Origin: a virus
Lineage: Duplodnaviria > Caudoviricetes
Strand: one strand, 5' to 3'
IMG/VR virus record: IMGVR_UViG_3300036802_000112
Location: 110,194 to 174,193 of that record
Length of the DNA stretch: 64,000 bases
Part shown: one piece after another, positions 1 through 60,500 of the stretch
Layout of the letters: each line of letters opens with the position of its first letter
Numbering within the stretch: the stretch's first letter is position 1
Notes under the pieces: model-generated
The model's input: the letters and a program-made list of their open reading frames with translations, nothing else
The model's database searches: none
Told to the model about the DNA's origin: nothing
Translations under genes and position numbers: made by a program

Positions 1-1
1 T

Positions 2-268
2 TATAATATGGTATTGGAACATAGATTAACAGAACTACAGGCCACGTTATATCCAGATGATGTTTATGAAGGGAAGCCAGGACAAGCGTATTCTCCAACC
101 GTCCTTCCTGATTACGTGACAGCAGATTTACAGCAATACATACATATGGAGCCTGTAACTTTAGAAGACGTAGAATCATGTTTAGAATGTTATCACTTGT
201 TCTTCATTAGGGAAGAAAGAGATTATCAAAATGAATATATTAACCCAATTATATTAGAGGTGTGGTAG
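2..268 (+). CDS. EVW-family acidic protein #1 (probably 5'-truncated by window edge)
   Basis: Frame is open from position 2; ends ...EDVESCLECYHLFF...YINPIILEVW*. Confidence 0.8.
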   Translation, partial: YNMVLEHRLTELQATLYPDDVYEGKPGQAYSPTVLPDYVTADLQQYIHMEPVTLEDVESCLECYHLFFIREERDYQNEYINPIILEVW

Positions 269-280
269 GGAGAGAATATT

Positions 281-682
281 ATGTTGCCAAACGTGTTAGT
301 TGAACATTCGGAGTTGTTAATTAATGATATGCAAATGTTTATATTTCAAGAATATAAATTGATTTGGGATGAATGTATATCGAAACGAAGAACGGAAGTT
401 CCTTCAATATATACGATTGCAGAACGCATTTACGAGGTTCTACAAGACAAAATCACAAAGCTGCTACAGGCTAAGTATACATTTAATATCGATAACTTCA
501 ACGAAGAAGATTTCCAAAAAACCGTGGCAATATATTCATTTTGGTTTGACCAAAAGACAGAAGGTAATGATTACATATTTGAATCTTTACTTCATGAAAT
601 GACTAAATTTTTCTGTTTGCATCAATTATTTCACGAAAGGGATGGGGAGTTAATAAATCAACCTATCTTGGAGGTGTGGTGA
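281..682 (+). CDS. EVW-family acidic protein #2
   Basis: GGAGAG RBS; ends LINQPILEVW*. Confidence 0.85.
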   Translation: MLPNVLVEHSELLINDMQMFIFQEYKLIWDECISKRRTEVPSIYTIAERIYEVLQDKITKLLQAKYTFNIDNFNEEDFQKTVAIYSFWFDQKTEGNDYIFESLLHEMTKFFCLHQLFHERDGELINQPILEVW

Positions 683-684
683 TA

Positions 685-1050
685 TTGTATGAACTGATAA
701 ACCCATTGGATGTTATCGGTAACTTAGCTTATGTAGCGCTTAATTCAACGTATTTATTTATCGTTTCGGAAAGATGTTATAACCCAAATCATATACCTAC
801 GATTGAAATGATTCACAATCACTTTGTGGATCATTTCATTCAAGAGTTAGTGTTAGAAGTTATACAAAGAGAAAGTTTCGAAACATTAGGTGCTGATGAT
901 TTAGACGACTTCTTACATCAAGTTAAGAACAAAAAATACCATCCGTTTATACCTGACATTATTGAACTACGAAATATGTTAGAAGCATGTTATATGACTT
1001 TTATAGAGGACGGTGAAGTTCATAATCCAATTATTGTGGAGGTGTGGTGA
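685..1050 (+). CDS. EVW-family acidic protein #3
   Basis: Probable TTG start (MYEL) 8 nt after GGAGGTG at 670-676; ends VHNPIIVEVW*. Confidence 0.85.
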   Translation: MYELINPLDVIGNLAYVALNSTYLFIVSERCYNPNHIPTIEMIHNHFVDHFIQELVLEVIQRESFETLGADDLDDFLHQVKNKKYHPFIPDIIELRNMLEACYMTFIEDGEVHNPIIVEVW

Positions 1051-1469
1051 TGTATCAACTTATACATCAGAATGACCGGAAAAAGAGCGCTTTAGAAGAA
1101 TCAGCAGAAGCCATATTTTATTCAGTATACGGAGAGTTAGGAGAAGCAATACTGGATGAATTGTTTGGAGATTACCCGTATATCTTTATAGGGGATTTAG
1201 TAGATAAAGTGTATCAAGAATTGTATTTCGAGGAATACACAAACTTAATAGATGAATCAATCTTGAGAGGTGATCACGAAATATATGCACTATCAAAAGA
1301 TGATTATACATTACAAGTATACGGAGGAAATATCGGTTTATATTATGAACCTGCTTTTGAAGTGTCTGATATAAAAACAATGATAAGTCAAATGTTGTGC
1401 GAACAGAACATAGCATACTTAGATTATGACTTCACGATGCAAAATGAAATTATATTAGAGGTGTGGTAA
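1050..1469 (+). CDS. EVW-family acidic protein #4
   Basis: TGATG overlap; starts MYQL; ends MQNEIILEVW*. Confidence 0.85.
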   Translation: MYQLIHQNDRKKSALEESAEAIFYSVYGELGEAILDELFGDYPYIFIGDLVDKVYQELYFEEYTNLIDESILRGDHEIYALSKDDYTLQVYGGNIGLYYEPAFEVSDIKTMISQMLCEQNIAYLDYDFTMQNEIILEVW

Positions 1470-1933
1470 TGGTCAATGTAAATGAATTAATGCTTATGAA
1501 TCCAGATGACATTGTAGGTATTATGGATGCTATGAATTTAATAACAAAGGAGACATTCGATAGGTTCGTCACGTTATTAACACATTGGTACAAAAGAGAA
1601 TCACTGATGGAAGATAACATTCCAAATTTATTTCCAATCTTCCAGATGACAGATCCAATCATAGACGACTTATGCGAAATATTTATAGAGAGTATAGGGT
1701 GGAGGGAGTTGGGAGAACAACAGATGACTCATGAATTCGAACGGAATCCGGAAGACAAACTAATTATCAAGAATCAATTTGTCGATGGTTACGATTCGGT
1801 ATATTCAACAAACATGGTCAGGGATACAGAACGAGTTTTTAATTCTATGAACCTTGTACATAGATGGGATTCTACATATGTAGGAGGTAAAGATAACTTA
1901 GTAACAGGAGGAGTTGTATTAGAAGTATGGTAG
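1469..1933 (+). CDS. EVW-family acidic protein #5
   Basis: TAATG overlap; HWY...IPNLF motif; ends TGGVVLEVW*. Confidence 0.85.
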   Translation: MVNVNELMLMNPDDIVGIMDAMNLITKETFDRFVTLLTHWYKRESLMEDNIPNLFPIFQMTDPIIDDLCEIFIESIGWRELGEQQMTHEFERNPEDKLIIKNQFVDGYDSVYSTNMVRDTERVFNSMNLVHRWDSTYVGGKDNLVTGGVVLEVW

Positions 1934-2364
1934 GTACATATGCATTATCAGTAGAAACGGAAGAAATAGAATACGATGTAATCAAACCACAATACGTATC
2001 ATGGTTTGAAAGGGTAATTATGAATTGGTATCAAGAGTTCGGTAGGTTAACCCCCAAATACCTACCGACTGTTGTGGATATTTTAGATGATAGCCTTCAT
2101 CCAATAGGTGGAACTGCATCAGAAGCATTCGCTCTTTTAGAACAATCTGTTCAAGTTGAGTTTTGTGGTATTGATACATTTCCAGAAGACTTAGGGAATT
2201 GGACAGATGACCACTACTTATACTTTGAAGACCAAGTGGATTTAACTGATTACGAAGTAGATTTATTTAAAGATATAGAGAAACTGTTAGAAACGAAAGG
2301 ATTAACATACTCTAGATATAACCCCGAAACAGCGCAAGTATCAAGTGTAATCGAGGTGTGGTAA
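1927..2364 (+). CDS. EVW-family acidic protein #6
   Basis: Starts MVGTYAL; NWY...LPT; KDIEKLLETKGLTY; ends SSVIEVW*. Confidence 0.85.
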   Translation: MVGTYALSVETEEIEYDVIKPQYVSWFERVIMNWYQEFGRLTPKYLPTVVDILDDSLHPIGGTASEAFALLEQSVQVEFCGIDTFPEDLGNWTDDHYLYFEDQVDLTDYEVDLFKDIEKLLETKGLTYSRYNPETAQVSSVIEVW

Positions 2365-2813
2365 ATGTATCAATTAGCGGTTAATAATTACAGTGAAGTG
2401 CCATTTAAAATAGTAGATAAGGACCCGGGAACCGTGCAAGAATTCTTCTTTTTAATTTCTGGATTGTATCATGACTATTGTATGTGCAGAGAAGACCTCC
2501 CTAGTCCAAAAGACATGCTAGAAGAAGATCGTAATTTTTATCCAAAATCAAACGAAACAGTAAACGGATTTTTAGATGGTATGATTCATGAAATGATGCA
2601 TAGACGAAATACTTTCTTAGATGATTTTATAGAAGTATTACCAGAAGACGCGGACACTGATTCTTTAGCTGATTTTTTAGATGGATGTTGGGATGATATG
2701 AAGCCTTACTATGAGGATGAAATACGTATCGCATTAGAAGTACTAGGATACGCATATAAAGGCGAATGGGGAGAAGTAAGAAATACTTATGTAATCGAGG
2801 TGTGGTAAATGTA
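2346..2813 (+). repeat. 24-bp exact direct repeat TGTAATCGAGGTGTGGTAAATGTA flanking EVW gene #7
   Basis: Identical at 2346-2369 and 2790-2813. Confidence 0.95.
2365..2808 (+). CDS. EVW-family acidic protein #7
   Basis: Starts MYQL directly after TAA; ends VRNTYVIEVW*. Confidence 0.85.
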   Translation: MYQLAVNNYSEVPFKIVDKDPGTVQEFFFLISGLYHDYCMCREDLPSPKDMLEEDRNFYPKSNETVNGFLDGMIHEMMHRRNTFLDDFIEVLPEDADTDSLADFLDGCWDDMKPYYEDEIRIALEVLGYAYKGEWGEVRNTYVIEVW

Positions 2814-3177
2814 CGAGATACAAAAGACAGAGGTAGAATTCATCTTTGTGCCGGATGATTTCTACCACACTTTTAAAGATGTTATAAAAACGTGGTATGA
2901 AAATTTCGAATACTGTTTCCCGACACGGATACCAGAGGCACAAATATTTAGTATGGACTACCAAATTGGTTTCGAATTTGAAAGTGGCTTAATATGGTTT
3001 GCAGGTGCAATATTAGAAATTGCGGAACCAGACAATGAATTTGCTTCCATGCATGATTTAAGTGTAATGGAACAGATGTGGTTCGAAGAGGATATGCGTA
3101 CATTATTAGATGCAGAAAGTATCACTTATATGTACGACGGTGAACTTAAAAATAGTGTTATTTTGGAGGTATGGTAG
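2809..3177 (+). CDS. EVW-family acidic protein #8
   Basis: Starts MYEI; ends LKNSVILEVW*. Confidence 0.85.
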   Translation: MYEIQKTEVEFIFVPDDFYHTFKDVIKTWYENFEYCFPTRIPEAQIFSMDYQIGFEFESGLIWFAGAILEIAEPDNEFASMHDLSVMEQMWFEEDMRTLLDAESITYMYDGELKNSVILEVW

Positions 3178-3179
3178 GT

Positions 3180-3713
3180 ATGTATTTAAGTACAGAAGTA
3201 GCAAATCATGAATTTCAATTTTTCTGTTTAGAAACAAATTCAATAGAAGAAATCACGAAAGATCTTAGAGAAGTTTATAAGGCGATTGTGAAAGAGACTG
3301 ATAATGTACCAAACTTATTCGATATCAGATTGTATAGTTCAAACTTAATCAACTACGTCTTTTTTGAAAGAATCGCCTTAGGGAAGGAAAGTGCCTTAGA
3401 TTATTATACAGACGGAGAAGGTATTATAGAACACATACAAGATATCATGAAAAGCTATTCGAAAGAAGAATTTCATCATGGAATCGAAAGGTGTATACAA
3501 GAATTCCCAACATTAGAATCTACCGAGGATATAATAGAACTTTTCATGGTTGACGCTTTATATATATTCAATCTGAATCAGTGGAGGTACCACGATATAG
3601 AATGGTATCCTGCTTACAACATGTTGCTGCTATCGGATAAATTAGGAGACATTTTGAATTCGCAGGGTAAGGTAGAATTCGATGTTAACAATCCAATGAT
3701 AGAGGTGTGGTGA
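3180..3713 (+). CDS. EVW-family acidic protein #9
   Basis: ATG at 3180 (MYLS) after GGAGGT; VPNLF motif; ends VNNPMIEVW*. Confidence 0.85.
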   Translation: MYLSTEVANHEFQFFCLETNSIEEITKDLREVYKAIVKETDNVPNLFDIRLYSSNLINYVFFERIALGKESALDYYTDGEGIIEHIQDIMKSYSKEEFHHGIERCIQEFPTLESTEDIIELFMVDALYIFNLNQWRYHDIEWYPAYNMLLLSDKLGDILNSQGKVEFDVNNPMIEVW

Positions 3714-3714
3714 A

Positions 3715-4200
3715 ATGAATCAATTAACATTACTTTCGGATGTTAATCAAGTTATAGACTTCGACTTTTTCGAACACAAAGGAAATAAGTTGGAAGAATT
3801 CAAAGAAGAATTGTTGGGTTCCTATGAACAAGCTTGTGAGTATTGGGTTTATGATGAAGGAGAAGAACAACTTCCCACGCTTTCTGTTATAGGCGATATA
3901 GCTTGCAGGATGTATGTAGAAGAAATTGTGTTTAAATGTTATGCAGATGGATCTATAGCAGGGAATATAGATGTCAGAGAAAATATAGATGAACATCAAT
4001 GCGACCAATTAGATGAAATACAAGACTCTATCCATGATGAGTTCCATCATAATAGAAGTTTCGGAATGGGTATCGGTAACATAAGAGATTACTTCAATGA
4101 CATCGAAAAGTTATTGAACTTATGTAACTTAACATATAGAAAGGATGATGATAGAGCGAATATATGCAACGTTAATTCACATGTTGTGGAGGTTTGGTGA
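3715..4200 (+). CDS. EVW-family acidic protein #10
   Basis: Starts MNQL; NDIEKLLNLCNLTY; ends VNSHVVEVW*. Confidence 0.85.
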   Translation: MNQLTLLSDVNQVIDFDFFEHKGNKLEEFKEELLGSYEQACEYWVYDEGEEQLPTLSVIGDIACRMYVEEIVFKCYADGSIAGNIDVRENIDEHQCDQLDEIQDSIHDEFHHNRSFGMGIGNIRDYFNDIEKLLNLCNLTYRKDDDRANICNVNSHVVEVW

Positions 4201-4667
4201 TGTATCAATTACAGACTGATGTAAAGGAGTTTCCGTTACATTTTATACCGAAAGAAAAAACAGAAGCATTCATTAAGGCAATACTGTCTGCATACAAACG
4301 TATATATACAGTTATGAGTAAAGTGAGTGGAGTGAATTCATTCCATTACATAGAACCCTGGGGAGACATTGGCGTCTTTCTAGGGGATTTTTATGTAATG
4401 GGATGTTGCTATTACGAGACAGGAGAAGAGTATGCATACGAAAAAGCAGTAGCAAAAATAGATGCTATGGGAGATGATGGCGCATTCGAGTTAAGTGCAA
4501 TGTATAACGACGAGTGTTTTGAAGATTGGAGAAGTGAGTTCATTGATGATATCACAGCGGTTCTAGATATGCACAACTATTCATATTTCGATCCAGCTTC
4601 CGACCCGTACGCTGTCAATCTTGATTGTGTAGAAGTGAACAATACTCATATTATATCAGTATGGTAA
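4200..4667 (+). CDS. EVW-family acidic protein #11 (SVW variant)
   Basis: TGATG overlap; starts MYQL; ends VNNTHIISVW*. Confidence 0.85.
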   Translation: MYQLQTDVKEFPLHFIPKEKTEAFIKAILSAYKRIYTVMSKVSGVNSFHYIEPWGDIGVFLGDFYVMGCCYYETGEEYAYEKAVAKIDAMGDDGAFELSAMYNDECFEDWRSEFIDDITAVLDMHNYSYFDPASDPYAVNLDCVEVNNTHIISVW

Positions 4668-4681
4668 AGGAGAAGATAAAG

Positions 4682-5155
4682 ATGCAACAATTTATGTTAC
4701 CACAAAACTATGTTAGAGGTTATGATAACGCCCCTTATCGTTTGATATTCAATGTTCCAGAAGATGAGTTTAGAAAAGTTATGCGAGATATTTATATAGC
4801 TACTCACACAACGAACAGACCACCATACTTCGAAAGAATTTTATCGGAGCTTATTGAGATAGGTATGTTCTCTCGTGTGTTCTTAGAATACGCCAAAGAG
4901 AATCCTGAAAAATTCGATATGTCTATAAAACGCATAGATGAATTATATTATTGGGTGGTGGAGAAAGGTGTGAATGATGAATCAATTACACAAGAATTAT
5001 TAAGTTTTGCAGGGTATTACTTCTGCGAAGAGTTCGAAAACGATATCCGTATCTTCTTGAACGATTTTAATTACAGTTTTTTAGAAAGAGATTATCACCA
5101 TCAACATGCGGATGAAGCTGCAATTAGAAACTCATGTATTATCCCTGTTTGGTGA
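4682..5155 (+). CDS. EVW-family acidic protein #12 (PVW variant)
   Basis: Own AAGGAG RBS, ATG at 4682 (MQQFML); NDIRIFLNDFNYSF; ends IRNSCIIPVW*. Confidence 0.8.
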   Translation: MQQFMLPQNYVRGYDNAPYRLIFNVPEDEFRKVMRDIYIATHTTNRPPYFERILSELIEIGMFSRVFLEYAKENPEKFDMSIKRIDELYYWVVEKGVNDESITQELLSFAGYYFCEEFENDIRIFLNDFNYSFLERDYHHQHADEAAIRNSCIIPVW

Positions 5156-5204
5156 TATGTGAGTTTTTCTTTTTTAGTAGTGCACAGAGAAGGGGTCTTG
5201 CAAA

Positions 5205-5996
5205 ATGACATTAGCAATTAAAGACAGTAAATGGATTAAGCGTTTTGACGTCGCTAAACTATTAGAGGATTCTTTAGACATGTCGTATTGGAAAGGGGAT
5301 GATTGTACAAAAGGAGTTTTCTTTACAGATGAATACGGTTACGCATTAAATAAAGTAGTAGCTATACGAGTTCATCATGACGAAGATGCTCCAGAAGTCT
5401 TCTACTCATTTAATGAGAAGGATGACGAAGAATGTGGACCAGTCGTAACAGAGTATCCATATGAAGAGTTATCGTTATTACCTCGTAAACATCATTTACT
5501 ATTTGAGGATACAAAAGTAGAGAAGAAAAATCTAGACAAAGTATTCGAAAGAAAAGAGGTGTTAAAATCAATTCAAATTGAACCGAAAACAATTGTGGAG
5601 AAGATCGAAGAGGAAATTCCAAATAAACGTCAACGTGATCGAACACAGTTGAAAATAAAGGTTCGGGATAACGAAGTGTTGTTTGAAGCACATAAGAAAA
5701 AGAAAGTTACTTTTTCGGAAATCATTAAGTATGATACAATTACAACGCGAGACATTATTGAACTACAACAACCTACATATGATTTAAGTCATTGGGAGAC
5801 AGATAAAAAGACCAATGAAATAAACGGGGCAATCAATGCACATACGTTATGCTATTTACTTCATGTGTTTCAGGATTTTAATTCTGTATTTTTGCACTTT
5901 GAAGAAAATAGAGTTTTTATCGTAGGTAATCCAAATGATGTTAATATAAATGGAACGCCTACAATAGAAGTCGTTGTTAGTTTAATGAAGCTTTAA
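5205..5996 (+). CDS. Hypothetical protein, possibly a divergent sliding-clamp (DnaN-like) protein
   Basis: C-terminus AINAHTLCYLLHVF...VFLHF...VVVSLMKL resembles the beta-clamp C-terminal domain pattern; adjacent to primase-helicase. Confidence 0.35.
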   Translation: MTLAIKDSKWIKRFDVAKLLEDSLDMSYWKGDDCTKGVFFTDEYGYALNKVVAIRVHHDEDAPEVFYSFNEKDDEECGPVVTEYPYEELSLLPRKHHLLFEDTKVEKKNLDKVFERKEVLKSIQIEPKTIVEKIEEEIPNKRQRDRTQLKIKVRDNEVLFEAHKKKKVTFSEIIKYDTITTRDIIELQQPTYDLSHWETDKKTNEINGAINAHTLCYLLHVFQDFNSVFLHFEENRVFIVGNPNDVNINGTPTIEVVVSLMKL

Positions 5997-6019
5997 TGTG
6001 TTTTAGAGGAGGAAATGGT

Positions 6020-9000
6020 GTGAGTTGGTACAGTAAGGTTAATAAATATATAGATGATAACTTAATGGATTTCATCAAAGAGTTCTTCGGAGCGAATGCA
6101 AATACAGAGAAAATCGCCAGAGCTATTCGTGTTAGTCCTGCGCCATGTTGTGGTCATAACGATTGTTTCTCATTCGCAACTGAGAAAAATGCATTCAACT
6201 GTTTCTCTTGTAGAAAAAGCGGCAACAGAATTAAATCGTTGCAATACTTATTCGGTAATGAAAAAGACGCGAATAAGGCACTTTCTAAATGGGCAGGCGT
6301 TGAGTACCTAGAAGATCGTGTATATGACGAACAAACGAGAAAGAAAATGGAGAAGGAAGAAAGACTGCAAGAGTTATATAGAATTGCTATTCTCCATTAC
6401 ACGTTCCAAATGCAAGACGAAACGGAATCTACGGCTTTAGCTATGCAAACAGGGAAAGAGCATGGTTGTCGTAAACACCAACTTGATTTCCTAAAGAAAT
6501 ATAAAGTTGGGTATTCAAGTGGTTGGGACTTCCTTCGCAATGCATTAGAAAAATCACCGAAGGGCTTCACAAAAGAAGAAATAGAAGAAGCGAAAAGTTT
6601 CATCTCTATTCCAGAAGGATACTTTGTTTACCCTTATTATGATAAAGCAGGAAACTTAATTCGTATCAATACTAAATTGTTCGAAAGAAAATGTTTAGGT
6701 TCTTACGATAGAGATACAGGAAGGTATGGTTACGATTGTGGCTATAGAACAAAAGACCTTTCCAAGAAATCACGAGAAACACATGAGCATCTAAAGAAAC
6801 ATAAGATGGCCGGAGATGGTTTTTCACGCGGTGAGAAAACAAATGCATTTTACTTTGATCCAGAATCTATACAAAGAAAGCGATTCGCTATTCTTGTGGA
6901 AGGTGAAAATGATGTAATCTCGGCTGACGAAGAAATGGCAAATCTCCCTGAAAGTTATCGAAGAGATTTCGCTATCATCGGTTTAGGCGGTCAAATGGAT
7001 GAAGAAAGTTTTGAGAGTCTATTCCTTCGTCAATTCGAAAAGATTTATGAGTGTTTCGACCACGACGATGCAGGAGATAAATACAGAAATTTGTTAGATG
7101 AAAAACTACCTGACGTTCCTGTATACTCTATCCTATTCGATGACGATATCAATGATATCGATGCATGGCTTAAATCTCATTTGTATAATCCAGGTGATTT
7201 CAAAGATGCTATTGATAATGCAGCGTACAGAGATACAAAGCATTATATCATCGAACGAGAAACATCAAAGCACCATTGGAGATTAAAGAACAGACAATTC
7301 GAAATTACTTTCGATGTTTCCAAAGCGAATCATCAGAAAGGTACCATTGATGGAACAATCAGTGTTTACAAAGGCGGTCAACCTACGTTCAAGAAAACTG
7401 GAGATTTAATGAACACGAAGATTGACCCAGCTTTAAACACAACAAAATTGTTATTCGCAGAAGAAGTAGATAAGTATTACAACGATGTTGAGATGGTAGC
7501 GGATAAACCGAAGCGTTCGTATTGGGAACTGATTAATATATTTAAATACACAAGTAAACAAAACCAAGTCATTAGACAGTTAGCTTGGTACTTACATCAG
7601 AAAGATATAAAAGAATTCCAAGCTGCAGCATCAAAACTAGGTGCGTTAGGTCAAGAAGTGAAGGCACAAATTCTACAAGAAGTAAATTCTATAGAAAACC
7701 AACAGTTCGACCCAAACATTACACCGCCAATTATTACGTTATCTCAGTTCTTTAACATTCCAAACAATGACGCTTTCTTCTACTTCTCGAAAATTATTAA
7801 TGAAGAAGATGTTACGAAAGCTGTTCCTTGTTTAATAACAAACAAGAAAGAAGAAATCCGTTTGGACCTGATGAAGAAGAGTGATCCGCAAAGTATCTTG
7901 CTGATTAAAAATAAATATCAACTTCCAACTGAAGTTCCGATAACAATCATGAACCAAAATGAAGTTTCTTTACAACGTTATTGGGTAGAACGTTGGAAGA
8001 ATGAACAATTAGATCCTGCGGAGTATGACCCGTCTAAATTAATTAAAGAAATTGAAGATTTCATTAGAGGTTCGTATTACCTGCATGATGATACGTTAAA
8101 AGTATTATCGTTATGGATCTATTCAACATATTTCTATATGTTATTCCAAAGCGGATTCCCTTACTTATTAATCACCGGGGAAAAAGGAACGGGTAAATCA
8201 ACTGCCGATTTCCTAATCTACTTGTTATCTCTTAATCCTAAGTTTGCACTGCACATGTCGGAATCATCATTATTCCGTGCAATCAGTCAGCAGGGCGGAA
8301 CGTTTATCCTGGATGAGTTAGAGAACCTAACAGACAAGAAATCAGTTGATGGAAATGCATTTGCGACAATCCTAAAAGGTGGGTATTCTAACTTCGGTAG
8401 AATTTACAGAACAAATATGGAAAACGGTATTGCGATGATTGAGGAACATTCAGCGTTTGGCCCGAAAGTAATTTCAAACATCAACGGATTAGATGATGTA
8501 ATCGGTGACCGTTGTATCTTCATTAAAACTGCGCGTGCACCGGAATCGAAATTGAAATTCTTGAAAGACCCGCAAATTTATAGAGAGCAAGAACGTTCCA
8601 AAGCACACTCAATCACTTCGAGATGTGTAATATCAGCGTTAGAATACTTCCAAACTGTAAACGAAATTTACAACGATGCAAATAACAAAGTAATGACTGG
8701 TAATGCTCGTCTATCGCAAATCATCTTACCGTTAGTAGCGATGGCTAAATTTGTAGGTGGAGATTACGAAGAAGCTTTAATGCGATTCTACCGCGACGAT
8801 ATCGCACCTGTAAAAGAAGAGTTATCTGTTTCTACACAAGAGGGTATGGTTAAGAACATCTTGAAAATTGTTGCACAAGAGCTTACAGGTATCAGAGAAT
8901 CGAAATGGGCAACGAATGAAAAGATACACACGCATACTGTTCCAATCACATATCATCGTGAAACTGGCATATTTGAAATGGACTTACTGCACTTTATGGT

Positions 9001-9268
9001 ACTTGGTGAAGAATCGAATGACGGTATAGAACTTGAATTGAAATCTTTACGCAATACAATTAAGATGATATTCAAAAGCGCAACCGACTTTAAAAACAGT
9101 GCGACACCAAAGAATTTAACCATCCATGATGAGTCATTACAAAGAAGGTTAAATAATCAGAAGAACATCAGAACAACGTTATTTAGATTTAACGTCAACG
9201 ATTATCTGAGTGAATCAGAAAAGCAAACGTTGCATAATAACTCTGTTCCAGAAACATCACTATTCTAA
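6020..9268 (+). CDS. DNA primase-helicase fusion (Zn finger + TOPRIM + C-terminal P-loop NTPase)
   Basis: PCCGHNDC...FNCFSC zinc finger; ILVEGEND and CFDHDDAG TOPRIM motifs; Walker A GEKGTGKS, Walker B FILDE; GAGGAGG RBS before GTG at 6020. Confidence 0.85.
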   Translation: MSWYSKVNKYIDDNLMDFIKEFFGANANTEKIARAIRVSPAPCCGHNDCFSFATEKNAFNCFSCRKSGNRIKSLQYLFGNEKDANKALSKWAGVEYLEDRVYDEQTRKKMEKEERLQELYRIAILHYTFQMQDETESTALAMQTGKEHGCRKHQLDFLKKYKVGYSSGWDFLRNALEKSPKGFTKEEIEEAKSFISIPEGYFVYPYYDKAGNLIRINTKLFERKCLGSYDRDTGRYGYDCGYRTKDLSKKSRETHEHLKKHKMAGDGFSRGEKTNAFYFDPESIQRKRFAILVEGENDVISADEEMANLPESYRRDFAIIGLGGQMDEESFESLFLRQFEKIYECFDHDDAGDKYRNLLDEKLPDVPVYSILFDDDINDIDAWLKSHLYNPGDFKDAIDNAAYRDTKHYIIERETSKHHWRLKNRQFEITFDVSKANHQKGTIDGTISVYKGGQPTFKKTGDLMNTKIDPALNTTKLLFAEEVDKYYNDVEMVADKPKRSYWELINIFKYTSKQNQVIRQLAWYLHQKDIKEFQAAASKLGALGQEVKAQILQEVNSIENQQFDPNITPPIITLSQFFNIPNNDAFFYFSKIINEEDVTKAVPCLITNKKEEIRLDLMKKSDPQSILLIKNKYQLPTEVPITIMNQNEVSLQRYWVERWKNEQLDPAEYDPSKLIKEIEDFIRGSYYLHDDTLKVLSLWIYSTYFYMLFQSGFPYLLITGEKGTGKSTADFLIYLLSLNPKFALHMSESSLFRAISQQGGTFILDELENLTDKKSVDGNAFATILKGGYSNFGRIYRTNMENGIAMIEEHSAFGPKVISNINGLDDVIGDRCIFIKTARAPESKLKFLKDPQIYREQERSKAHSITSRCVISALEYFQTVNEIYNDANNKVMTGNARLSQIILPLVAMAKFVGGDYEEALMRFYRDDIAPVKEELSVSTQEGMVKNILKIVAQELTGIRESKWATNEKIHTHTVPITYHRETGIFEMDLLHFMVLGEESNDGIELELKSLRNTIKMIFKSATDFKNSATPKNLTIHDESLQRRLNNQKNIRTTLFRFNVNDYLSESEKQTLHNNSVPETSLF

Positions 9269-9270
9269 CG

Positions 9271-9303
9271 AAAAGACCGCTAAGTATACTTAGTGGTCTT
9301 TTT
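9271..9303 (+). terminator. Intrinsic terminator
   Basis: AAAAGACCGCTAAG-TATA-CTTAGTGGTCTTTT hairpin with T-tract. Confidence 0.8.
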
Positions 9304-9588: not shown

Positions 9589-9610
9589 TGTCGTTTATAG
9601 GCGAAAACTT

Positions 9611-9626
9611 GTTATAAGTAAAGTGA
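9611..9626 (+). promoter_or_regulatory. Repeated motif GTTATAAGTAAAGTGA (putative phage-specific promoter), copy 1
   Basis: Same 16-mer occurs at five other intergenic sites upstream of + strand genes. Confidence 0.7.
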
Positions 9627-9927: not shown

Positions 9928-10704
9928 ATGACAGAATTTGCAGTAATCACACCGTTCTCATTAAATTGGAAGTTTGTTGTTCCGCATGATTATGAGAGGT
10001 TAGAATATTTCGTTACACCTCGTGTATCTTTATTATTCCACGAGATCACAAATGGGAAACAAGATTTCGTTATCGGTTCATTCCTTATTAACGAAAGTAA
10101 CAAAGATAAGTTTATGAACGAGATTCTCCCGCAACGTTCTAATCAAAGAATTCAAAAGGCCTTTGAAGATGAAAATGTTTCTGCTTTTCTAAACAGAGAA
10201 GATGCAGAAATTTGCGAACAACTATTTAGAAACGAAGGTTTCTTTTGTCATCGATTAAGTATCTTGTTAGACGGGACACCTGTTGATTTAAGAACATTAC
10301 CAGCAGATGAGTTTTACGAAACGATAGAAACGTTATCTGCATTGAAGGTTGTGTCTGTTATGGACTTTGAAGAGAATGCAACTGAAATAGCTGATATGGT
10401 AACAGAAACAAGAAAACTCATCGAAGAAGGAATTAGAAAGGAAGAGAGCAGAAAACGTTCGGAGAAAAAGGGATTCACAAAAAGAGTCGCGAACATTCGA
10501 GGAGCATTAGGAACAGCATCAATGGTTGCATCAGTCGCATGTGGGATAGGAGCAAAGAAGATGGTAAGAAAAGGTGGGTTATTAGGTTTTGCAATAGCAA
10601 GCGTTTGTACAATATTAGGTTTCGGGTTTGCTTCAATTGGTAAGAGTCTAGCCGGAGATAGTATTCAATATTACATGCAAGGGATGGTGAGATTCGGTGT
10701 CTAA
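9928..10704 (+). CDS. Hypothetical membrane protein (two C-terminal hydrophobic helices)
   Basis: AAGGAGG RBS; GALGTASMVASVACGIGA and GLLGFAIASVCTILGFGFASIG. Confidence 0.75.
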   Translation: MTEFAVITPFSLNWKFVVPHDYERLEYFVTPRVSLLFHEITNGKQDFVIGSFLINESNKDKFMNEILPQRSNQRIQKAFEDENVSAFLNREDAEICEQLFRNEGFFCHRLSILLDGTPVDLRTLPADEFYETIETLSALKVVSVMDFEENATEIADMVTETRKLIEEGIRKEESRKRSEKKGFTKRVANIRGALGTASMVASVACGIGAKKMVRKGGLLGFAIASVCTILGFGFASIGKSLAGDSIQYYMQGMVRFGV

Positions 10705-11674
10705 TGAAATCGTAACAGCTGGACATTACAGCGAAAAGTATTTTAAACGTCCGAACAACAAAAAGAATAGTCCAAATGATTGTCACAAAACGAATGAAGA
10801 ATTAAAGTTCATGTGCGATACCGCTTTCGATGCACATATTTCTGCGTTCTTCGGTATAGAAGGTGGGCTTGAAGCATTGACAGATGACAGTGTAGAGTTA
10901 ACACAAGCGGCTCAACAAGAAGTTAAGAGTCAAGTCATGCAGGAAAAAGAGTTAAAAACAACAGATGACGCTTTCCACCAAAAGAAATTCGAAAGAGGTA
11001 AGGCTACTATTACACGAGAATATATCGAGGAAAAGTATGCAGAAGAAAAGGAGAAGATAGCACGAGGTGAATCTATTTCGAATTCAACAGATTTCGTTGT
11101 AGAAGAACCTAAATCTCCTTATCCTGATGGTTCTCCTTGGAACAGAGATAAACAATCTGGCCCAAGAACTCAAAGTTACTTCGGAGGGAAAGAAAAAGGA
11201 ATCAACGGCGAGCGTGTGTATTATAACGATAGAGAAAGAAAAGATACAACTAGCCGTTCAACATCTTCTTATCAAACAGGATCAACAACTAAGGATAGAA
11301 GAAAGTTAGATTCTGTATATGATCATATGGGGCGCATTGCAGATAACACACAAAACGTAGCGATGAAAACGAAACGTTGGAAAGACTACGAAAAAGAAGA
11401 AGCAAGAAACAACACTTCTTGGTCATCAGGAAATGGCAAGCAATCATTATTAGGGCGCATTAAACGTTTCGTACGTAAGCCAAAGTTTAGAGTAACAGCA
11501 AAAGTCGGTATGCTAATGACTCTACAACTCGGAATGGCAATGGTAGGTAAGAAGTACGAATTTGAAGGAATGGGACAAGCTGCTGCATTCCTAGCAATGA
11601 TGATGGGAGTATTCTACTTAACAAAAGAATTACAGAACGATGATTTCGATGTTAAGAGTTTCGGAATCTTATAG
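10697..11674 (+). CDS. Hypothetical membrane protein (low-complexity middle, two C-terminal hydrophobic helices)
   Basis: 325-aa ORF overlapping the previous gene; VGMLMTLQLGMAMVG and AAAFLAMMMGVFYL. Confidence 0.75.
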   Translation: MSNEIVTAGHYSEKYFKRPNNKKNSPNDCHKTNEELKFMCDTAFDAHISAFFGIEGGLEALTDDSVELTQAAQQEVKSQVMQEKELKTTDDAFHQKKFERGKATITREYIEEKYAEEKEKIARGESISNSTDFVVEEPKSPYPDGSPWNRDKQSGPRTQSYFGGKEKGINGERVYYNDRERKDTTSRSTSSYQTGSTTKDRRKLDSVYDHMGRIADNTQNVAMKTKRWKDYEKEEARNNTSWSSGNGKQSLLGRIKRFVRKPKFRVTAKVGMLMTLQLGMAMVGKKYEFEGMGQAAAFLAMMMGVFYLTKELQNDDFDVKSFGIL

Positions 11675-54229: not shown

Positions 54230-55300
54230 ATGGCAAAACACCTTATTCCAAAAGACTTGGAAAACTTGCCTAATTTCCCTATCACACAGGATCAGATTCA
54301 ACCAACTAACCCGAAGCCTAATCATTGGTGGTTAGACCTCAGTGTGATACCTCATATTTTATACCGTTGGAACGGTGTGAAATGGACAGCTATCGGTAAT
54401 ACTGGTGGAGGAAATGGAAGTGGCGGTATAGACGCAAGTGTTATCGCACAATTACAAGAACGAATTTCTATTATTGATTCTCAAATCGTTGTATTAAAAA
54501 ATGATTTAGATTCAAAGGTTTCTCGTACTCAATATGATACAGAGCGTATCGCTACTACAAACCGTCTTTCTAATTTAGAATCTAAAGCGATTCAACACTT
54601 AGATATGATCAACTTAAAAGTGTCTTTAGTGGATTACCAAAAGGATAAAACAAGCATCCTTTCACGCTTAACAGATTCAGAAAACCGCATTATCGAACAT
54701 ACGAATTTATTAGGTAATGTCACGCAACGTGATGTGATTATCGCAACGATCAACCAAAGTGTTGAAAAAGCGAAAATCAAAGGTGCTCTTATCGACTTAA
54801 CTGGAGTTGTTCGTCCAGAAGATTTAAAGACAACTCAATTAACTTTGACACGTCCAGATGGTTTTGTAACAGTAGATAAAGGTACATTAAATGTTCCGAT
54901 TTACATTCCAGGTGCATATCCGTTCTGTATTTCTGACAATGTAGATGTAGTAAAAGCGTTCTTCCGTACCGGTTCAATTAACCGAGAAGATGTACACCAA
55001 ATGGTATTTACTCATACAGCTCGTTACTTAAAAGTCATCTTAGGTATGTATTCAGAAGGTGATGCTTCAGTAAGCATGGCTGTAGAAGAAGAAGATTCAA
55101 AAGGAACACGTAATGTATTGGGTTCTAAAAACTCATCTAATACAGACAAGAAATCTCCTGATGCTACAAAAGGGCAAGTCTTAACAATTGACCTTGGCGA
55201 GCCAAAAGGGATGCAAAAAACAGTATACGTTACACTTCGCTCGACGTTAACTGGTAAGAATGTATACGGACGAGTTATCCAATCTTATTTAGAAGGTTAA
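54230..55300 (+). CDS. Tail fibre-like protein, short paralogue (356 aa)
   Basis: N-terminal WWLDLS...LYRWNGVKW; coiled coil; LTRPDG...IDLGEP...SYLEG C-terminal domain. Confidence 0.75.
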   Translation: MAKHLIPKDLENLPNFPITQDQIQPTNPKPNHWWLDLSVIPHILYRWNGVKWTAIGNTGGGNGSGGIDASVIAQLQERISIIDSQIVVLKNDLDSKVSRTQYDTERIATTNRLSNLESKAIQHLDMINLKVSLVDYQKDKTSILSRLTDSENRIIEHTNLLGNVTQRDVIIATINQSVEKAKIKGALIDLTGVVRPEDLKTTQLTLTRPDGFVTVDKGTLNVPIYIPGAYPFCISDNVDVVKAFFRTGSINREDVHQMVFTHTARYLKVILGMYSEGDASVSMAVEEEDSKGTRNVLGSKNSSNTDKKSPDATKGQVLTIDLGEPKGMQKTVYVTLRSTLTGKNVYGRVIQSYLEG

Positions 55301-55316
55301 GAAAGGGTGATATAAA

Positions 55317-57143
55317 ATGAGAAAGATTCACTCCTTGCTGGAAGATTTTCAAATCTTCCAGCAAAATGTTCCACCATCACAACCAGAAGAAAACGTTTGG
55401 TGGTGTGATACATCTATCGAACCAAACCGTCTTTACCGTTGGAATACACTAAAATGGATTCCGGTTGGATCTATTATTTCTGGTGGCGGCGGTAGTGGTA
55501 TGGATGAAGAGATTATTATTAAATTAGAAGATAAAATTAATAATCTACAATCTCAGCTCACTATGACTGCAAAAGAAATTGCAACAAAGGTAAGTAAACA
55601 AGATTACGAAAAAGATATTAATGGTGTACTGCAACGTGTAACTTTAGCAGAAAGCTCAATTTCACAAACTGCAGAACAAATCAAAAACACTGTTTCGAAA
55701 TCAGTTTACGAAAAAGATCAAAATGGTGTATTACAAAAAATCAGCACAATGGAAAGTTCGATTACACAAACCGCAGAAAGTATTAAATCCGTTGTAAAAA
55801 AAGATGATATTATATCTTCAATCAATCAGTCTGCGGAACAAATTCAAATCTCGGCAAATAGAATCTCATTCGAAGGTACAGCTATTTTTGATAACCTAGA
55901 AGGCGAACTCAAAAAGCAAATGTACGAGATTGAACAGGCTGCTAACCAAGCTAAACAGTTAGTTGATTTATGGAAGGTTAGCGGAACGACAACGATTAAC
56001 GGTGGTATGATTGCTTCTGATACAATTGCTGCCAAAACTTTGTTAATCGGTAACTTCGATAATCTATTCTCGAACGGAACATTAGAGTTCGGAGCTAAAG
56101 GTTTCACCTTAGGAACCAGCGGTAAGATTTTAGCAGAGAATCCTTACAGCGGTAAGTTCGCTTTACGCATCGCATTAAATGGTAATTTTAATGACGTTAT
56201 GGATGAGCGCTCTATTAAAGTAGTGCCTGGTGAAAAATACAAGTATGAAGTATTCGCTAGAACAAATAGTGGAACGATGTATGACCGTGTATTCCTAGTG
56301 AAATATATCGACACAACAGGAACTGTAAAAAGCTTCTATGTAGATAGCCAAACTATCAATAACACATGGAAACAGTTCTCAGGAACATTTACAATCCCTG
56401 CCGGAATTGTTGAAATGACTATTGGTGTAGGTACAACTGCTAGCCCTGCTAACGGAACTACTTACATCTACTATGACAATTTATATTGCCGTAGAATGTT
56501 AGACGGAAATACGATCATTGATGGTACACTTTCATTCGATAAAGCGAAAGGCGGAAGCCTTACATTAGGCGGAGCTAACAATGAAAGTGGCGCGCTTTAT
56601 ATCAAGGATGAAAATGGAAATATTATCGTGTACGGCAATAAAAACGGCCTTAATATTCAAAATGGTAAATTAACTGTCGTTCGTCCCGATGGGGCGAAAA
56701 TGATTACAGATGGTGTTATGGCTTATGACTTTACTATTGATAGTCATGAACCTCCATTTACAGGAACCAACATCCGTACACGTTCTTGGTACTGGGCAAC
56801 AAACAAAGGAATCGGCATGACGCGTGATGACCAAGTTTGCCAGTTCTTCTCATTCAGACATACATCAAGATACATCAATTTTGAAATGGATTATTTAATG
56901 GATGGCGTAGGACAAGGAAGCTTATTATTCACGCACGCTGGTAAATTTGATAACAACGGGAAAGAAATCATACTAAGAGATATTGCTTTCAGTAACACAA
57001 AAGCATTAACTGGTGGCGCAGGTCATGTTATTATTGACTTAGGAAAACCAACATACGAAAAGATGGGTATCTACGTAACTCTATATTCATGGACTGCCAA
57101 TGATGCTTTATGTCGTAAAGTACGCGCTTACTTGGAGGGATAA
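55317..57143 (+). CDS. Tail fibre-like protein, medium paralogue (608 aa) with one carbohydrate-binding-like module
   Basis: Same N/C domains; SSISQTAEQI repeats; NLFSNGTLE...VVPGEKYKY...WKQFSGTFTIP. Confidence 0.8.
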   Translation: MRKIHSLLEDFQIFQQNVPPSQPEENVWWCDTSIEPNRLYRWNTLKWIPVGSIISGGGGSGMDEEIIIKLEDKINNLQSQLTMTAKEIATKVSKQDYEKDINGVLQRVTLAESSISQTAEQIKNTVSKSVYEKDQNGVLQKISTMESSITQTAESIKSVVKKDDIISSINQSAEQIQISANRISFEGTAIFDNLEGELKKQMYEIEQAANQAKQLVDLWKVSGTTTINGGMIASDTIAAKTLLIGNFDNLFSNGTLEFGAKGFTLGTSGKILAENPYSGKFALRIALNGNFNDVMDERSIKVVPGEKYKYEVFARTNSGTMYDRVFLVKYIDTTGTVKSFYVDSQTINNTWKQFSGTFTIPAGIVEMTIGVGTTASPANGTTYIYYDNLYCRRMLDGNTIIDGTLSFDKAKGGSLTLGGANNESGALYIKDENGNIIVYGNKNGLNIQNGKLTVVRPDGAKMITDGVMAYDFTIDSHEPPFTGTNIRTRSWYWATNKGIGMTRDDQVCQFFSFRHTSRYINFEMDYLMDGVGQGSLLFTHAGKFDNNGKEIILRDIAFSNTKALTGGAGHVIIDLGKPTYEKMGIYVTLYSWTANDALCRKVRAYLEG

Positions 57144-57148
57144 TAAAA

Positions 57149-57490
57149 ATGGAAACAACAACTTTAATGGTTCGAGTGGATGAGAACGGGAATATTATAG
57201 AAGCCCAAAATGGAAAATATTTAATGGTTTCTCCTGGATATACATTCATTTTAAGTAATGTCGATGTTGAAGTAGCGAAATTAGCTATTCATTACAAAAT
57301 AGAAATGGATGGTTTCAAACCTAAATTAGTAACTAAAGATGGAACTCAACTTCCGGAACAACCAGATGTTCCAGAAATGGGATTGTCTACGGACGAGAAA
57401 TTGAAACGACTAGAAAACGAAAACAAGTCCATACAGCAAGCACTTCTAGATCTTACGGACTTCGTATTCCAGTCTCAATCGAAAAATTAA
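57149..57490 (+). CDS. Putative tail fibre chaperone/accessory protein
   Basis: Follows fibre gene; C-terminal EKLKRLENEN...ALLDL coiled coil. Confidence 0.55.
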   Translation: METTTLMVRVDENGNIIEAQNGKYLMVSPGYTFILSNVDVEVAKLAIHYKIEMDGFKPKLVTKDGTQLPEQPDVPEMGLSTDEKLKRLENENKSIQQALLDLTDFVFQSQSKN

Positions 57491-57491
57491 T

Positions 57492-57529
57492 TTTAAAAAC
57501 CAGGTGTGATTATCATACCTGGTTTTTAA
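57492..57529 (+). terminator. Intrinsic terminator
   Basis: TTAAAAACCAGGTGTGA...TCATACCTGGTTTTTAA. Confidence 0.75.
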
Positions 57530-57569
57530 TGATAAAATAGATGTATTATCATTAAAAGAAGGTGAGAAG

Positions 57570-60500
57570 ATGCCGAAACATTTAACCACATTTGACGAAA
57601 TATTATTTGAGTCTAACATTACAAAACAACCGACTCCACCTCAAAATCCATTACCAAACCAGGTGTGGATGGACACGAGTAAAGAGCCAAATATCCTTTT
57701 CCGTTGGGATGGCATAAAATGGGTTCCAGTTGGATTGCAAAACGAAAACGGGAATATCGAAATCATCGAAGACTTGCAAAATCACGTCGATCAAATCATT
57801 GATGATTTAAATAACAAAGCAAACAAAGAAGAAGTTCTAGCGAAAGTGAAAGAAATCGAGACAGACTTAGCCACGAAGGTTAATGGTGAATTTGTCGATG
57901 GTAAACTAATCATTGTTAACGATCAAATCGAAAACAAGATAAAAGAGCTTACAACTAAACTAGATGAGAAAGTTAACGATGCTGTATTCACAGAAGAAAT
58001 CACCGACATCTTAAATTCTTTAAAAGATAAAGCGGATTTAACATTCATTAACGGGCAGCTTGTATCGAAAGCGGATAAGGATAATACTTTTACAAAAGAA
58101 GAAACGATAAACGCTCTTAACTCAAAAGTAAGTAAAACGGAATATACGACTGATAAAGAAGGTATCGTAAAAGATTTAAAGGACCAAGAAAGTCGTATCA
58201 CACAGACGGAAGAAGAAATAAAAGCAACTGTAAAATCTGTAGATTATAAAGCTGACCAAAAAGGTGTAGTAGACCGATTAACTCAAGCAGAAAGTGCTAT
58301 CACACAGACGTCCGGTCAGATTTCATCAACCGTTAAGAAAACCGAGTATGACATAGACCAAAAGAAAGTTAATGATTCCCTCGGAGGGAAGGCCAATAGC
58401 GCCGACTTAGGTTTACTCGCTGATCGTGTGACAAAAAACGAAAGTTCCATTACACAAACCGCAGAACAAATCGAGAGTAAAGTATCTAAAACCACATACG
58501 AAAAAAACGTAACGGATACAAAAACGAAGTTGGACCAATTCAATCAGGACTTAGATACAAAAGCATCTAAGGGTGAATTAACGCAAGCCGTAACACGCAT
58601 TACAGAAGCGGAAAGTCGTATCACTCAAACAGAGAAAGATATCACCGCTACTGTAAAACAAACTGTTTACGACAAAGATCAGCAAGGATTAATCTCACGA
58701 TTGAGTACAGCAGAAAGTAAGATTACACAACAAGCAGGTCTTATCGAAAGCACAGTAACGAAGACAGAATTCACTACAGCTAACAAAGTACTAAATGACC
58801 AGATTGAACAAATCAAAGCTGAAGCTGGTGATGGAGAAGCAATCGCACAACGTTTCGTAGAAGCGGAAAGTCGTATCACTCAAACAGAGAAAGATATCAC
58901 CGCTACTGTTAAAAAGGTTGATTATGAAAAAGACCAAAACAACGTCGTAACTAGATTGAATACCGCCGAAAGTAAAATTTCCCAAACGGAGAAAGATATC
59001 ACTTCTAAGGTTTCTTCCACCCAGTATAACCAAGACCAAACGACATTAAAAACACGAGTTACAGATGCAGAAAGTAAGATTACACAACAAGCGGGCCTTA
59101 TCGAAAGTAAGGTAACAAAAACTGATTATGAAAAAGACCAAGGAACTGTTATCAATCGATTAACAAGCGCTGAAAGTAAAATCACACAAACTGAAAAAGA
59201 TATTACTTCTAAGGTATCGAATGACATTTATACAAAAGACAAAAACGATACTTTAACTCGACTCGGAAAGGCAGAAAGTTCTATCACGCAACAAGCAGGC
59301 CTTATCGAGAGTAAAGTAGAGAAAACAGTTGTATCTAGCCTTGATACGAAAGTAACAAATTCATTATCACAAATGAACGAAGACTTAGATACTATCGGGG
59401 TAAGAGTTGAAAAAACAGAGAGCTCCATTAAACAAACAAACGACTCTATCGCAACTTCCGTTTCTTCTATAAATAAAAAAATAGATGGTATTTCTGTAGG
59501 CGGTAACAACATCATTCCTAATTCCCTATTCAAAACACAAGGAAAATGGAGAAATTGGGGAGTTACTGGAGGAACAAGAACTTTCGGTGTTCCTGTAGAT
59601 ATAGCTGGTTTCAGTCACGGTTTTCAATTCGACGCACCCGCAGCAGGGGAATATGGTTACGCAGTCGATAGCATTGAAGTAACACAAGGTGAAACATATA
59701 CGCTTTCGGCTTGGTTTAAATTAACAAAAGCAGGTACTATAAAAGTCCAAGAAGGTGATACCACTATCAAATGGACAAGTACAAACAATACCCCTGCACT
59801 TAATCAATGGATTCGAATCACACACACATTCGTAGCTAAAGGAAGTACAATAAGTCTTTACTTCGGTCAGGAAAGCACTTCTCCTGCATGTGCTGGATTT
59901 GTAACTGGTGCTCAATTAGAAAGAGGTAATAAAGCTACTGATTGGAGTGTATCTACTCAAGATTTAGATGCGGCTATTAACGACAAAGTATCTAATACAG
60001 AATACACGAAGAAAATGGCTGAAATCAAGGTAACAACAGACCAAATCTCTCAAAGTGTTTCTAACGTCGATAAGAAAGTTAACGATCAAGGCACACGATT
60101 AACAACAGCTGAATCTAAGATTACACAAACGGAAAAAGATATTGCGTTAAAAGTCAATTCTACCGATGTATACAAGAAAACAGAAATTGACCCTAAGTTA
60201 AATGCGAAAGTTGATAATAACACGTATAATTCTAAAATCGCATCTATCGAAGCGACCAATAATTCAATCACTCAACGTGTTGAAGAAGTAAATAAAACAG
60301 TTACAGAAATTTCTGTAGGTGGTAGCAACTTCTATAATCAGAAGGAATTTGGCCCTGGTGGTGGTACTACTGCTACTTATAATTCAACTTTAGGAGAATG
60401 GACAGTAACGGTTGCAGCTAATAACAGTGTGTCTTGGAAGGGTATTGCGTATGCCTCAAAAACAGCGTTACTTTTACCAGGCAGAACCTACACTATAAGT

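Follow-up and report, generated by a model that had tools for sequence, protein, structure and literature searches.

The IMG/VR virus record from which the window comes is 174,193 bp long and has direct terminal repeats; it is referred to below as G000, and the window is its final 64 kb (G000:C1:110194-174193). The phage DNA has a G+C content of 34-40%, and the genome encodes a tail-sheath-like protein. At the left edge of the window lies a tandem array of genes for small acidic proteins ending in Val-Trp (VW); this array, its C-terminal signature and the predicted sliding-clamp gene just in front of it are the subject of the present study. An earlier note on the window had described twelve co-oriented open reading frames (ORFs) with an invariant (E)VW ending and had supposed that the array might continue to the left. 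The twelve ORFs and the C-termini quoted for them were present as described, and a profile of the twelve run against the genome recovered two more members and the missing front of a3. The array consists of 14 co-oriented members and begins 856 bases left of the window, with two and a half members lying outside it. The first two, a1 and a2, were read from the fetched left flank (L011) and end in NSIVLEVW and NTAVIEVW. Several mechanical ORF starts were too early and were re-set from the ribosome sites. The likely starts within the window are 281, 685 (TTG), 1050, 1469, 1927, 2365, 2809, 3180, 3715, 4200 and 4682, and after this correction the members are 118-177 aa long. The members in the window are as follows:

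2..268, + strand: a3, C-terminal 88 of 133 aa (start at G000 110060, left of the window); ends NPIILEVW; matches the family hidden Markov model (HMM)
281..682, + strand: a4, 133 aa; ends NQPILEVW; has its own Shine-Dalgarno sequence (SD; GGAGAG) 3' of the a3 stop
685..1050, + strand: a5, 121 aa; TTG start (MYELIN...); ends NPIIVEVW
1050..1469, + strand: a6, 139 aa; overlaps a5 (TGATG); gave the weakest result in the leave-one-out test
1469..1933, + strand: a7, 154 aa; overlaps a6 (TAATG); ends GGVVLEVW
1927..2364, + strand: a8, 145 aa; overlaps a7 by 7 bases, the V-W codons of a7 (GTA-TGG) containing its ATG
2365..2808, + strand: a9, 147 aa; the member chosen for a structure model
2809..3177, + strand: a10, 122 aa; ends NSVILEVW
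3180..3713, + strand: a11, 177 aa; ends NNPMIEVW
3715..4200, + strand: a12, 161 aa; ends NSHVVEVW
4200..4667, + strand: a13, 155 aa; ends NTHIISVW, with S in place of E; the next SD (AAGGAG) comes after the stop
4682..5155, + strand: a14, 157 aa, the last member; ends NSCIIPVW, with P in place of E; no coupled gene 3' of it

The homology of the members was assessed by leave-one-out HMM tests, which were run with the last three residues of each member stripped. Against 299 decoy ORFs taken from the same genome, the left-out member came first in 13 of the 14 cases (E 9e-10 to 1.6e-3); a6 was marginal (E 0.021, rank 2). Member-versus-member BLAST matches were weak and limited to few pairs (best E 4e-6 to 4e-4), and paralogues inside one genome were 13-29% identical. 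Among the 634 ORFs of at least 50 aa in the genome, these 14 were the only ones ending in VW. In an alignment of 55 family sequences, Y35 and P46 were invariant and a D-I-x-x-x-L...Y block was consensus, and the two internal anchors read by eye in the earlier note are therefore real. The 'MYQL'-type start reported with them occurred in about 8 of the 14 members here but was not family-wide, and it was rejected as a second conserved motif of the family. The reported acidity was also real: the members have a pI of 4.05-4.76 and a net charge of -11 to -23, compared with a median pI of 5.7 for the other genome ORFs of at least 150 aa, and 10-19% of their residues are aromatic. Neither Pfam nor PHROGs gave a family above cut-off for the 10 members scanned; when the 55 family representatives were searched singly against Pfam, the best match was one member at E 7e-4, and no family was common to two members. 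On this sequence evidence, the array proteins are a real family without a name in any library searched, which agrees with the statement in the note that no named family was recognised.

The AF2 model of a9, built from a 14-row alignment, consists of four helices and a C-terminal hairpin, followed by a tail of 8 residues (pLDDT 75.8, pTM 0.69). The hairpin is modelled with confidence; the tail comes directly after it, at a mean pLDDT of about 74. The model suggests that the family members are mainly alpha-helical. A Foldseek search of the model against the PDB and BFVD gave nothing at E <=1e-3, and a second look over the Foldseek candidates also gave nothing. The best VIA-align 2 match had a Z of 4.7 over 48,161 chains, with no credible relative, and in the ESM Atlas the shape search gave TM <=0.45 and the feature search no usable match. 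These searches assign no fold to the modelled protein, and novelty of the fold does not follow from them.

To describe the gene ends, we tabulated 71 junctions from six related arrays. A recurrent DNA pattern was observed, ...GAG GTG TGG TRA (N0-3) ATG, in which GGAGGTG lies 5-9 bases before the next start. GGAGGTG is the canonical SD of Bacillus-type ribosomes. Counting the terminal Trp as position 0, the junctions fell into three types:

Tight junctions, next start between 1 base 5' and 3 bases 3' of the stop (n = 40): the -2 residue is E in 33 and G in 5; E is written GAG in 32/33, and Val is GTG in 24/40
7-base overlaps, one of them 4-base (n = 14): the -2 residue is free (G, E, D, A, S, N or H); Val is GTA in 10/14
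Spaced or terminal junctions (n = 17): E or G stands at -2 in 7 only; the six Glu codons are GAA in 4 and GAG in 2

Within gene bodies the GAG:GAA ratio was 271:739 (p 5e-17 for the comparison with tight junctions), and GTG made up 27% of the Val codons (p 3.5e-5). In the 7-base overlaps, which occur at window 1927-1933, at L011 12061-12067 and at several junctions in the related lineages L012, L015, L016 and L022, the string GT-ATG-G supplies the next ATG, and the next protein begins with MV because its ATG sits within the GTA-TGG (Val-Trp) codons. In the lineage of L016 and L023, the SD lies 3' of the stop, and the array proteins end in S/N/D-[IV]-W. The -2 residue and the Val codons (GAG-GTG) thus form the SD of the next gene, and the 'E' and the GTG preference are therefore by-products of translational coupling. 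The E of EVW is thus largely a nucleotide constraint and not a protein signature. Of the (E)VW ending that had been called invariant, VW is present in all 14 members, while E gives way to S in a13 and to P in a14.

We then considered the reading that the whole signature is a by-product of the coupling junction GGAGGTGTGG-TRA-ATG, with no meaning at the protein level. The codon bias at tight junctions and the embedded SD speak for it, and so does the observation that unrelated upstream genes gain ...LEV or ...KVW ends from the same SD; for instance, the clamp-fold genes in front of the arrays, at L016 6233-6244 and L023 11186-11197, have GGAGGTG, the SD of the first array gene, in their last codons and therefore end in ...ILEV. 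This reading is scarcely credible for the signature as a whole. Trp was terminal in 71/71 array genes, including those at the 17 junctions where the SD follows the stop or no gene follows at all, and the Val/Ile at -1 was written with six different codons (GTG, GTA, GTT, GTC, ATT and ATA). The 3' end of the 16S RNA of Bacillus-type ribosomes is established, and TGG lies outside the anti-SD complement. In a logo of 116 distinct members, Asn at -7 was conserved in 88%, Val/Ile at -4 in 90%, Val at -1 in 93% and Trp in 100%, with -6, -5, -3 and -2 variable; the -7 and -4 positions lie outside the SD. A purely nucleotide-level origin is refuted for [VI]W and stands only for the -2 residue and the GTG preference. 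Asn(-7), Val/Ile(-4), Val/Ile(-1) and Trp are kept whatever the junction type and have therefore been selected as protein, and the protein-level motif is best written as N-x-x-[VI]-x-x-[VI]-W-COOH. The pattern of its conserved -4, -1 and 0 positions would fit the face of a helical turn better than the hydrophobic beta strand that had been envisaged for the terminus.

The checks proposed in the earlier note included an HMM search and a comparison of copy number and order among related phages, and both were carried out. Searched against 1.84 billion proteins, the HMM of the 14 members matched 57 cluster representatives at E <=1e-3, and every one of these aligned to its very C-terminus and ended in [VI]W. 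A word-index-based family profile search recovered 5 clusters only, owing to index limits. In every lineage looked up the order was clamp gene, array, the gene here called 'dn', and primase-like gene. The copy numbers by lineage were 11, 13, 14, 14, at least 14 and at least 6, and across lineages the upstream protein was 344-398 aa, the downstream protein 241-267 aa and the primase-like protein about 1090 aa long. The family is confined to an uncultured phage clade, in collinear arrays of 11-14 copies. In the closest relative, L012, each of the 14 copies has its 1:1 orthologue at the same place in the order, and the tree supports this pairing strongly. These orthologues were 36-65% identical, compared with 62% for the clamp gene, 58% for the primase-like gene and 74% for the 'dn' gene. 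The collinear 1:1 orthology together with the low identity among paralogues indicated that the copies are old, individually maintained and not interchangeable. The array is therefore stable and not rapidly turning over, evolving about as fast as its flanking genes. The idea of a conserved scaffold with a conserved C-terminal peptide was supported; the idea of a fast-diversifying variable library was not.

The gene just upstream of the array, together with the hairpins that bound the two, is located as follows:

L011 10222-10253: terminator-like hairpin, just before the clamp gene, partner of the hairpin behind the array
G000:C1:108295-109338 (L011 10296-11339): clamp-fold gene, 347 aa, just left of the window
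5126..5168, + strand: terminator-like hairpin with T-run, closing the clamp-array unit

The 347-aa protein had no Pfam match, DnaN included, but a resemblance to the last unit of DnaN is visible in its C-terminal part. An AF2 model was obtained with a pLDDT of 67.6 and a pTM of 0.68. When it was searched with VIA-align 2, the top 39 rows were all natural sliding clamps or clamp-fold processivity factors, with Z scores of 14.5 for DnaN (rmsd 3.5-3.9 A over 189-191 residues, domains II-III), 12.2 for PCNA, 11.6 for T4 gp45 and 11.4 for herpes UL44. Among the Foldseek matches listed at E <=1e-3, all were clamps. The model aligned to two clamp domains and contained an extra beta-barrel at about residues 148-220, which gave weak S1/OB-like rows (Z 6-7). 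The modelling results indicated that the upstream protein has a divergent two-domain sliding-clamp fold. In 5/6 lineages the clamp stop overlaps or abuts the first array start, which amounts to translational coupling, and the terminator-like hairpins flank the clamp and the array, so that the two look like one operon.

The adjacency of the clamp, the operon structure and the spacing of the motif, which matches that of the PIP box (Qxx[I/L]xxFF, often C-terminal; PMC9690074), led us to a proposal in which the family members are adaptors that dock on the clamp through their VW tails. We put this forward tentatively, as the best of the readings considered but with clearly less than an even chance of being correct. 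According to the proposal, one transcription unit would deliver the clamp-fold protein and then 14 family members from packed, mostly translationally coupled genes. The C-terminal tail of each member would place a small hydrophobic plug into a pocket of the phage's own clamp, and the 14 differing acidic bodies would tether 14 differing activities or targets to clamp-marked DNA. The earlier note had suggested that the shared terminus might dock on one common partner; a concrete candidate for that partner is now available in the upstream clamp-fold gene, and the binding itself and the role of the bodies are what we infer. The signature described in the earlier note is in part a protein motif and in part a ribosome-binding site.

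Several points weigh against the docking proposal. The link between tail and clamp is drawn from adjacency, operon structure and motif spacing, and the tail is literally neither a PIP box nor the bacterial QL[SD]LF motif. The clamp model is of medium confidence and was built from a nine-sequence alignment. One complex prediction of the clamp-fold protein with a9 gave a score of 0.00; its controls were not run, and it carries no weight either way. To our knowledge, fourteen clamp adaptors in one phage would be without precedent. Because the tail follows a well-modelled hairpin with a pLDDT of about 74, it may pack onto its own helical bundle instead of being free. In addition, the Pfam searches detected neither a DNA polymerase (family A, B or C) nor a DnaN, AAA or clamp-loader delta-prime domain in the 174-kb genome, and the clamp-fold protein may therefore not be a loaded ring. 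A clamp-derived non-ring processivity subunit has been described for PhiKZ (PMC13648687), and by analogy the clamp-fold protein might be a subunit of that kind.

The main rival explanation holds that the VW tail is a structural part of the fold, or a strand or plug exchanged between members, and that it has no connection with the clamp. The proteins would then be early or middle host-interaction factors, such as acidic DNA mimics or inhibitors of host nucleases or defence proteins, placed in the replication module by a chance of layout. We regard this as a serious alternative, only slightly less probable than the docking proposal. Many phage inhibitors and DNA mimics are acidic, as are all members of the array, and the position of the a9 tail directly behind the hairpin, modelled with middling confidence and not floppy, is what a structural element would give; the invariant Y35 and P46 could make a pocket for the tail in cis. 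However, clamp-array synteny and coupling have been kept although the clamps of the syntenic lineages are only 24-63% identical, and the stable copy number and order and the replication-gene-like rates are unlike those of typical arms-race gene sets. The conserved -7, -4, -1 and 0 positions with free positions between them also look like a short linear docking motif. Furthermore, the family members matched no anti-defence or immunity family in Pfam, including AdfA (anti-DarT factor A, PF23813). No DNA-mimic or anti-restriction fold (Ocr, ArdA and similar) was among the listed a9 matches from Foldseek, VIA-align 2 and BFVD, an outcome that weighs neither for nor against such a fold.

The docking proposal can be extended to a 'tool-belt library'. 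A loader-less or highly divergent clamp would share one operon with 11-14 anciently diverged adaptors, all of which would use one pocket through N-x-x-[VI]-x-x-[VI]-W-COOH, and each would bring a different partner, possibly the RNA polymerase of the phage itself, to replicating phage DNA in the manner of T4 gp33 and gp55, in a clade without a recognisable DNA polymerase. We consider it doubtful that this extended form is right.

The genes downstream of the array are the following:

5205..5996, + strand: 'dn' gene, 263 aa; directly after the array in every lineage seen
5996..9268, + strand: primase-like gene, 1090 aa, with a CHC2 zinc finger and a Toprim domain
9928-11674, after the primase-like gene: two overlapping genes (258 and 325 aa) with hydrophobic, membrane-like C-terminal segments

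The 'dn' protein had no Pfam family and no PDB match. By its ESM Atlas features it lies close to clusters in which DnaN domains are partly present (score 0.91), and in hhalign its C-terminal 44 columns were in register with the last unit of the clamp, at a probability of only 3.6%. The 'dn' protein may be a second clamp-like protein, which we note as a weak lead. The primase-like protein ends in an acidic E-x-S-L-F tail, which reads ETSLF, EKSLF, EDSLF and EGSLF in four lineages and EEPF in a fifth, and which resembles the bacterial clamp motif QLSLF or an SSB-type tail. The 258- and 325-aa genes were considered as clamp loaders and rejected, as they had no Pfam match, no N-terminal P-loop and membrane-like ends.

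Upstream of the clamp gene, at L011 4940-9218 (G000 102939-107217), lie Mre11-like, DnaJ-like and split Rad50-like genes. The metallophosphatase/Mre11-like gene was assigned by length and position, and its L023 orthologue has Pfam Metallophos. The orthologues of the DnaJ-like gene in L016, L022 and L023 have Pfam DnaJ, and the Rad50-like ATPase is split into ORFs of 437 and 217 aa by an ORF of 83 aa. An exact 18-base motif, TTGTTATAAGTAAAGTGA, was observed at window 9609-9626 and at G000 67826, 101811 and 107662, in each case 40-60 bases 5' of a start codon. One copy stands before the gene of 169 aa that immediately precedes the clamp gene; at G000 99678 there is a fifth, with 2 mismatches. 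At window 54230-63623 (+), three successive proteins of 356, 608 and 2017 aa share a common C-terminal end, ...(S/A)YLEG; their PHROG matches are of the tail-fibre and endopeptidase type.

A megablast search of window 1-9300 against GenBank phages gave no match, nor did tblastn searches with the primase-like protein, the clamp-fold protein and a10 against 50,697 GenBank phage records. As a hint to the host, the tail-fibre protein was searched against bacterial genomes, in which no relative was found, and no evidence for any host, B. cereus included, came out of the analysis. The strong GGAGGTG-type ribosome sites and the low G+C content may point to a Bacillota host.

If the tail does dock on the clamp, the array would represent the largest known dedicated set of clamp partners in any virus, together with a new clamp-binding motif, and it would help to learn how a phage clade without a cultured relative replicates and transcribes its genome. 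Whatever the function, the junctions are a clean natural case of two overlapping codes, in which an SD, and sometimes a start codon, is written within the last codons of a conserved peptide. The sister lineage with the SD behind the stop separates the nucleotide constraint from the peptide constraint. For motif searches, the case carries a caution: where genes are tightly packed, a 'protein signature' at their ends can in part be a ribosome-binding site.

The array tail was compared with known clamp-binding peptides. Its i, i+3, i+6, i+7 spacing is that of the PIP box, with an amide residue at position 1, an aliphatic one at position 4, hydrophobic or aromatic ones at positions 7 and 8, and free positions between. 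The tail departs from the consensus of the PIP box and of QL(S/D)LF in having Asn for Gln and Val-Trp for Phe-Phe. It also differs from the PIP box in being always exactly C-terminal and in the common Pro at position 3, and its docking is a prediction. The 347-aa protein is similar to DnaN, PCNA and gp45 in its predicted two-domain clamp fold and in its place in a replication/recombination module; it differs from them in the missing Pfam DnaN match and the extra beta-barrel, and its formation of a ring is putative.

The closest parallel is found in phage T4, in which gp43, gp55 and gp33 bind the gp45 clamp through their C-termini. The T4 record gives the tails as SLDFLFG, SLDFLYEAND and NTLDFLL, respectively, and gp33 is a protein of 112 aa with a pI of 4.47. 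Like the array members, gp33 is small, acidic and helical, and this likeness raises a special case of the docking proposal. In this case the members would link the clamp with an RNA polymerase, which could be that of the phage itself, and would couple the transcription of gene sets to replicated DNA, with the paralogues serving different promoters or stages. Besides the match in size, acidity, helical content and hydrophobic-acidic C-terminal tail (PMC2988020), several weak structural rows of the a9 model are of sigma domain 4 or winged-helix type (Z 3.1-3.7), although these lie far below significance, as does the best row of that search. Homology to gp33 was not detectable, since hhalign of T4 gp33 against the 55-sequence family profile gave a probability of 2.2% over 16 columns, and fourteen co-activators are hard to rationalise. 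We consider the special case improbable. The T4 system differs from the present one in its (S/T)LDFL(F/Y/L) motif, compared with N-x-x-[VI]-x-x-[VI]-W here, in having three unrelated tail carriers and not fourteen paralogous ones, and in its clamp loader and DNA polymerase, neither of which was recognisable here in the Pfam searches. The two systems are alike in that a short hydrophobic-plus-acidic peptide stands at the extreme C-terminus of otherwise unrelated or diverged proteins of one phage. They are also alike in gene order: in T4, gene 45 for the clamp lies beside genes 46 and 47, which are of the Rad50/Mre11 type, and here the clamp-fold gene lies near Rad50/Mre11-type genes.

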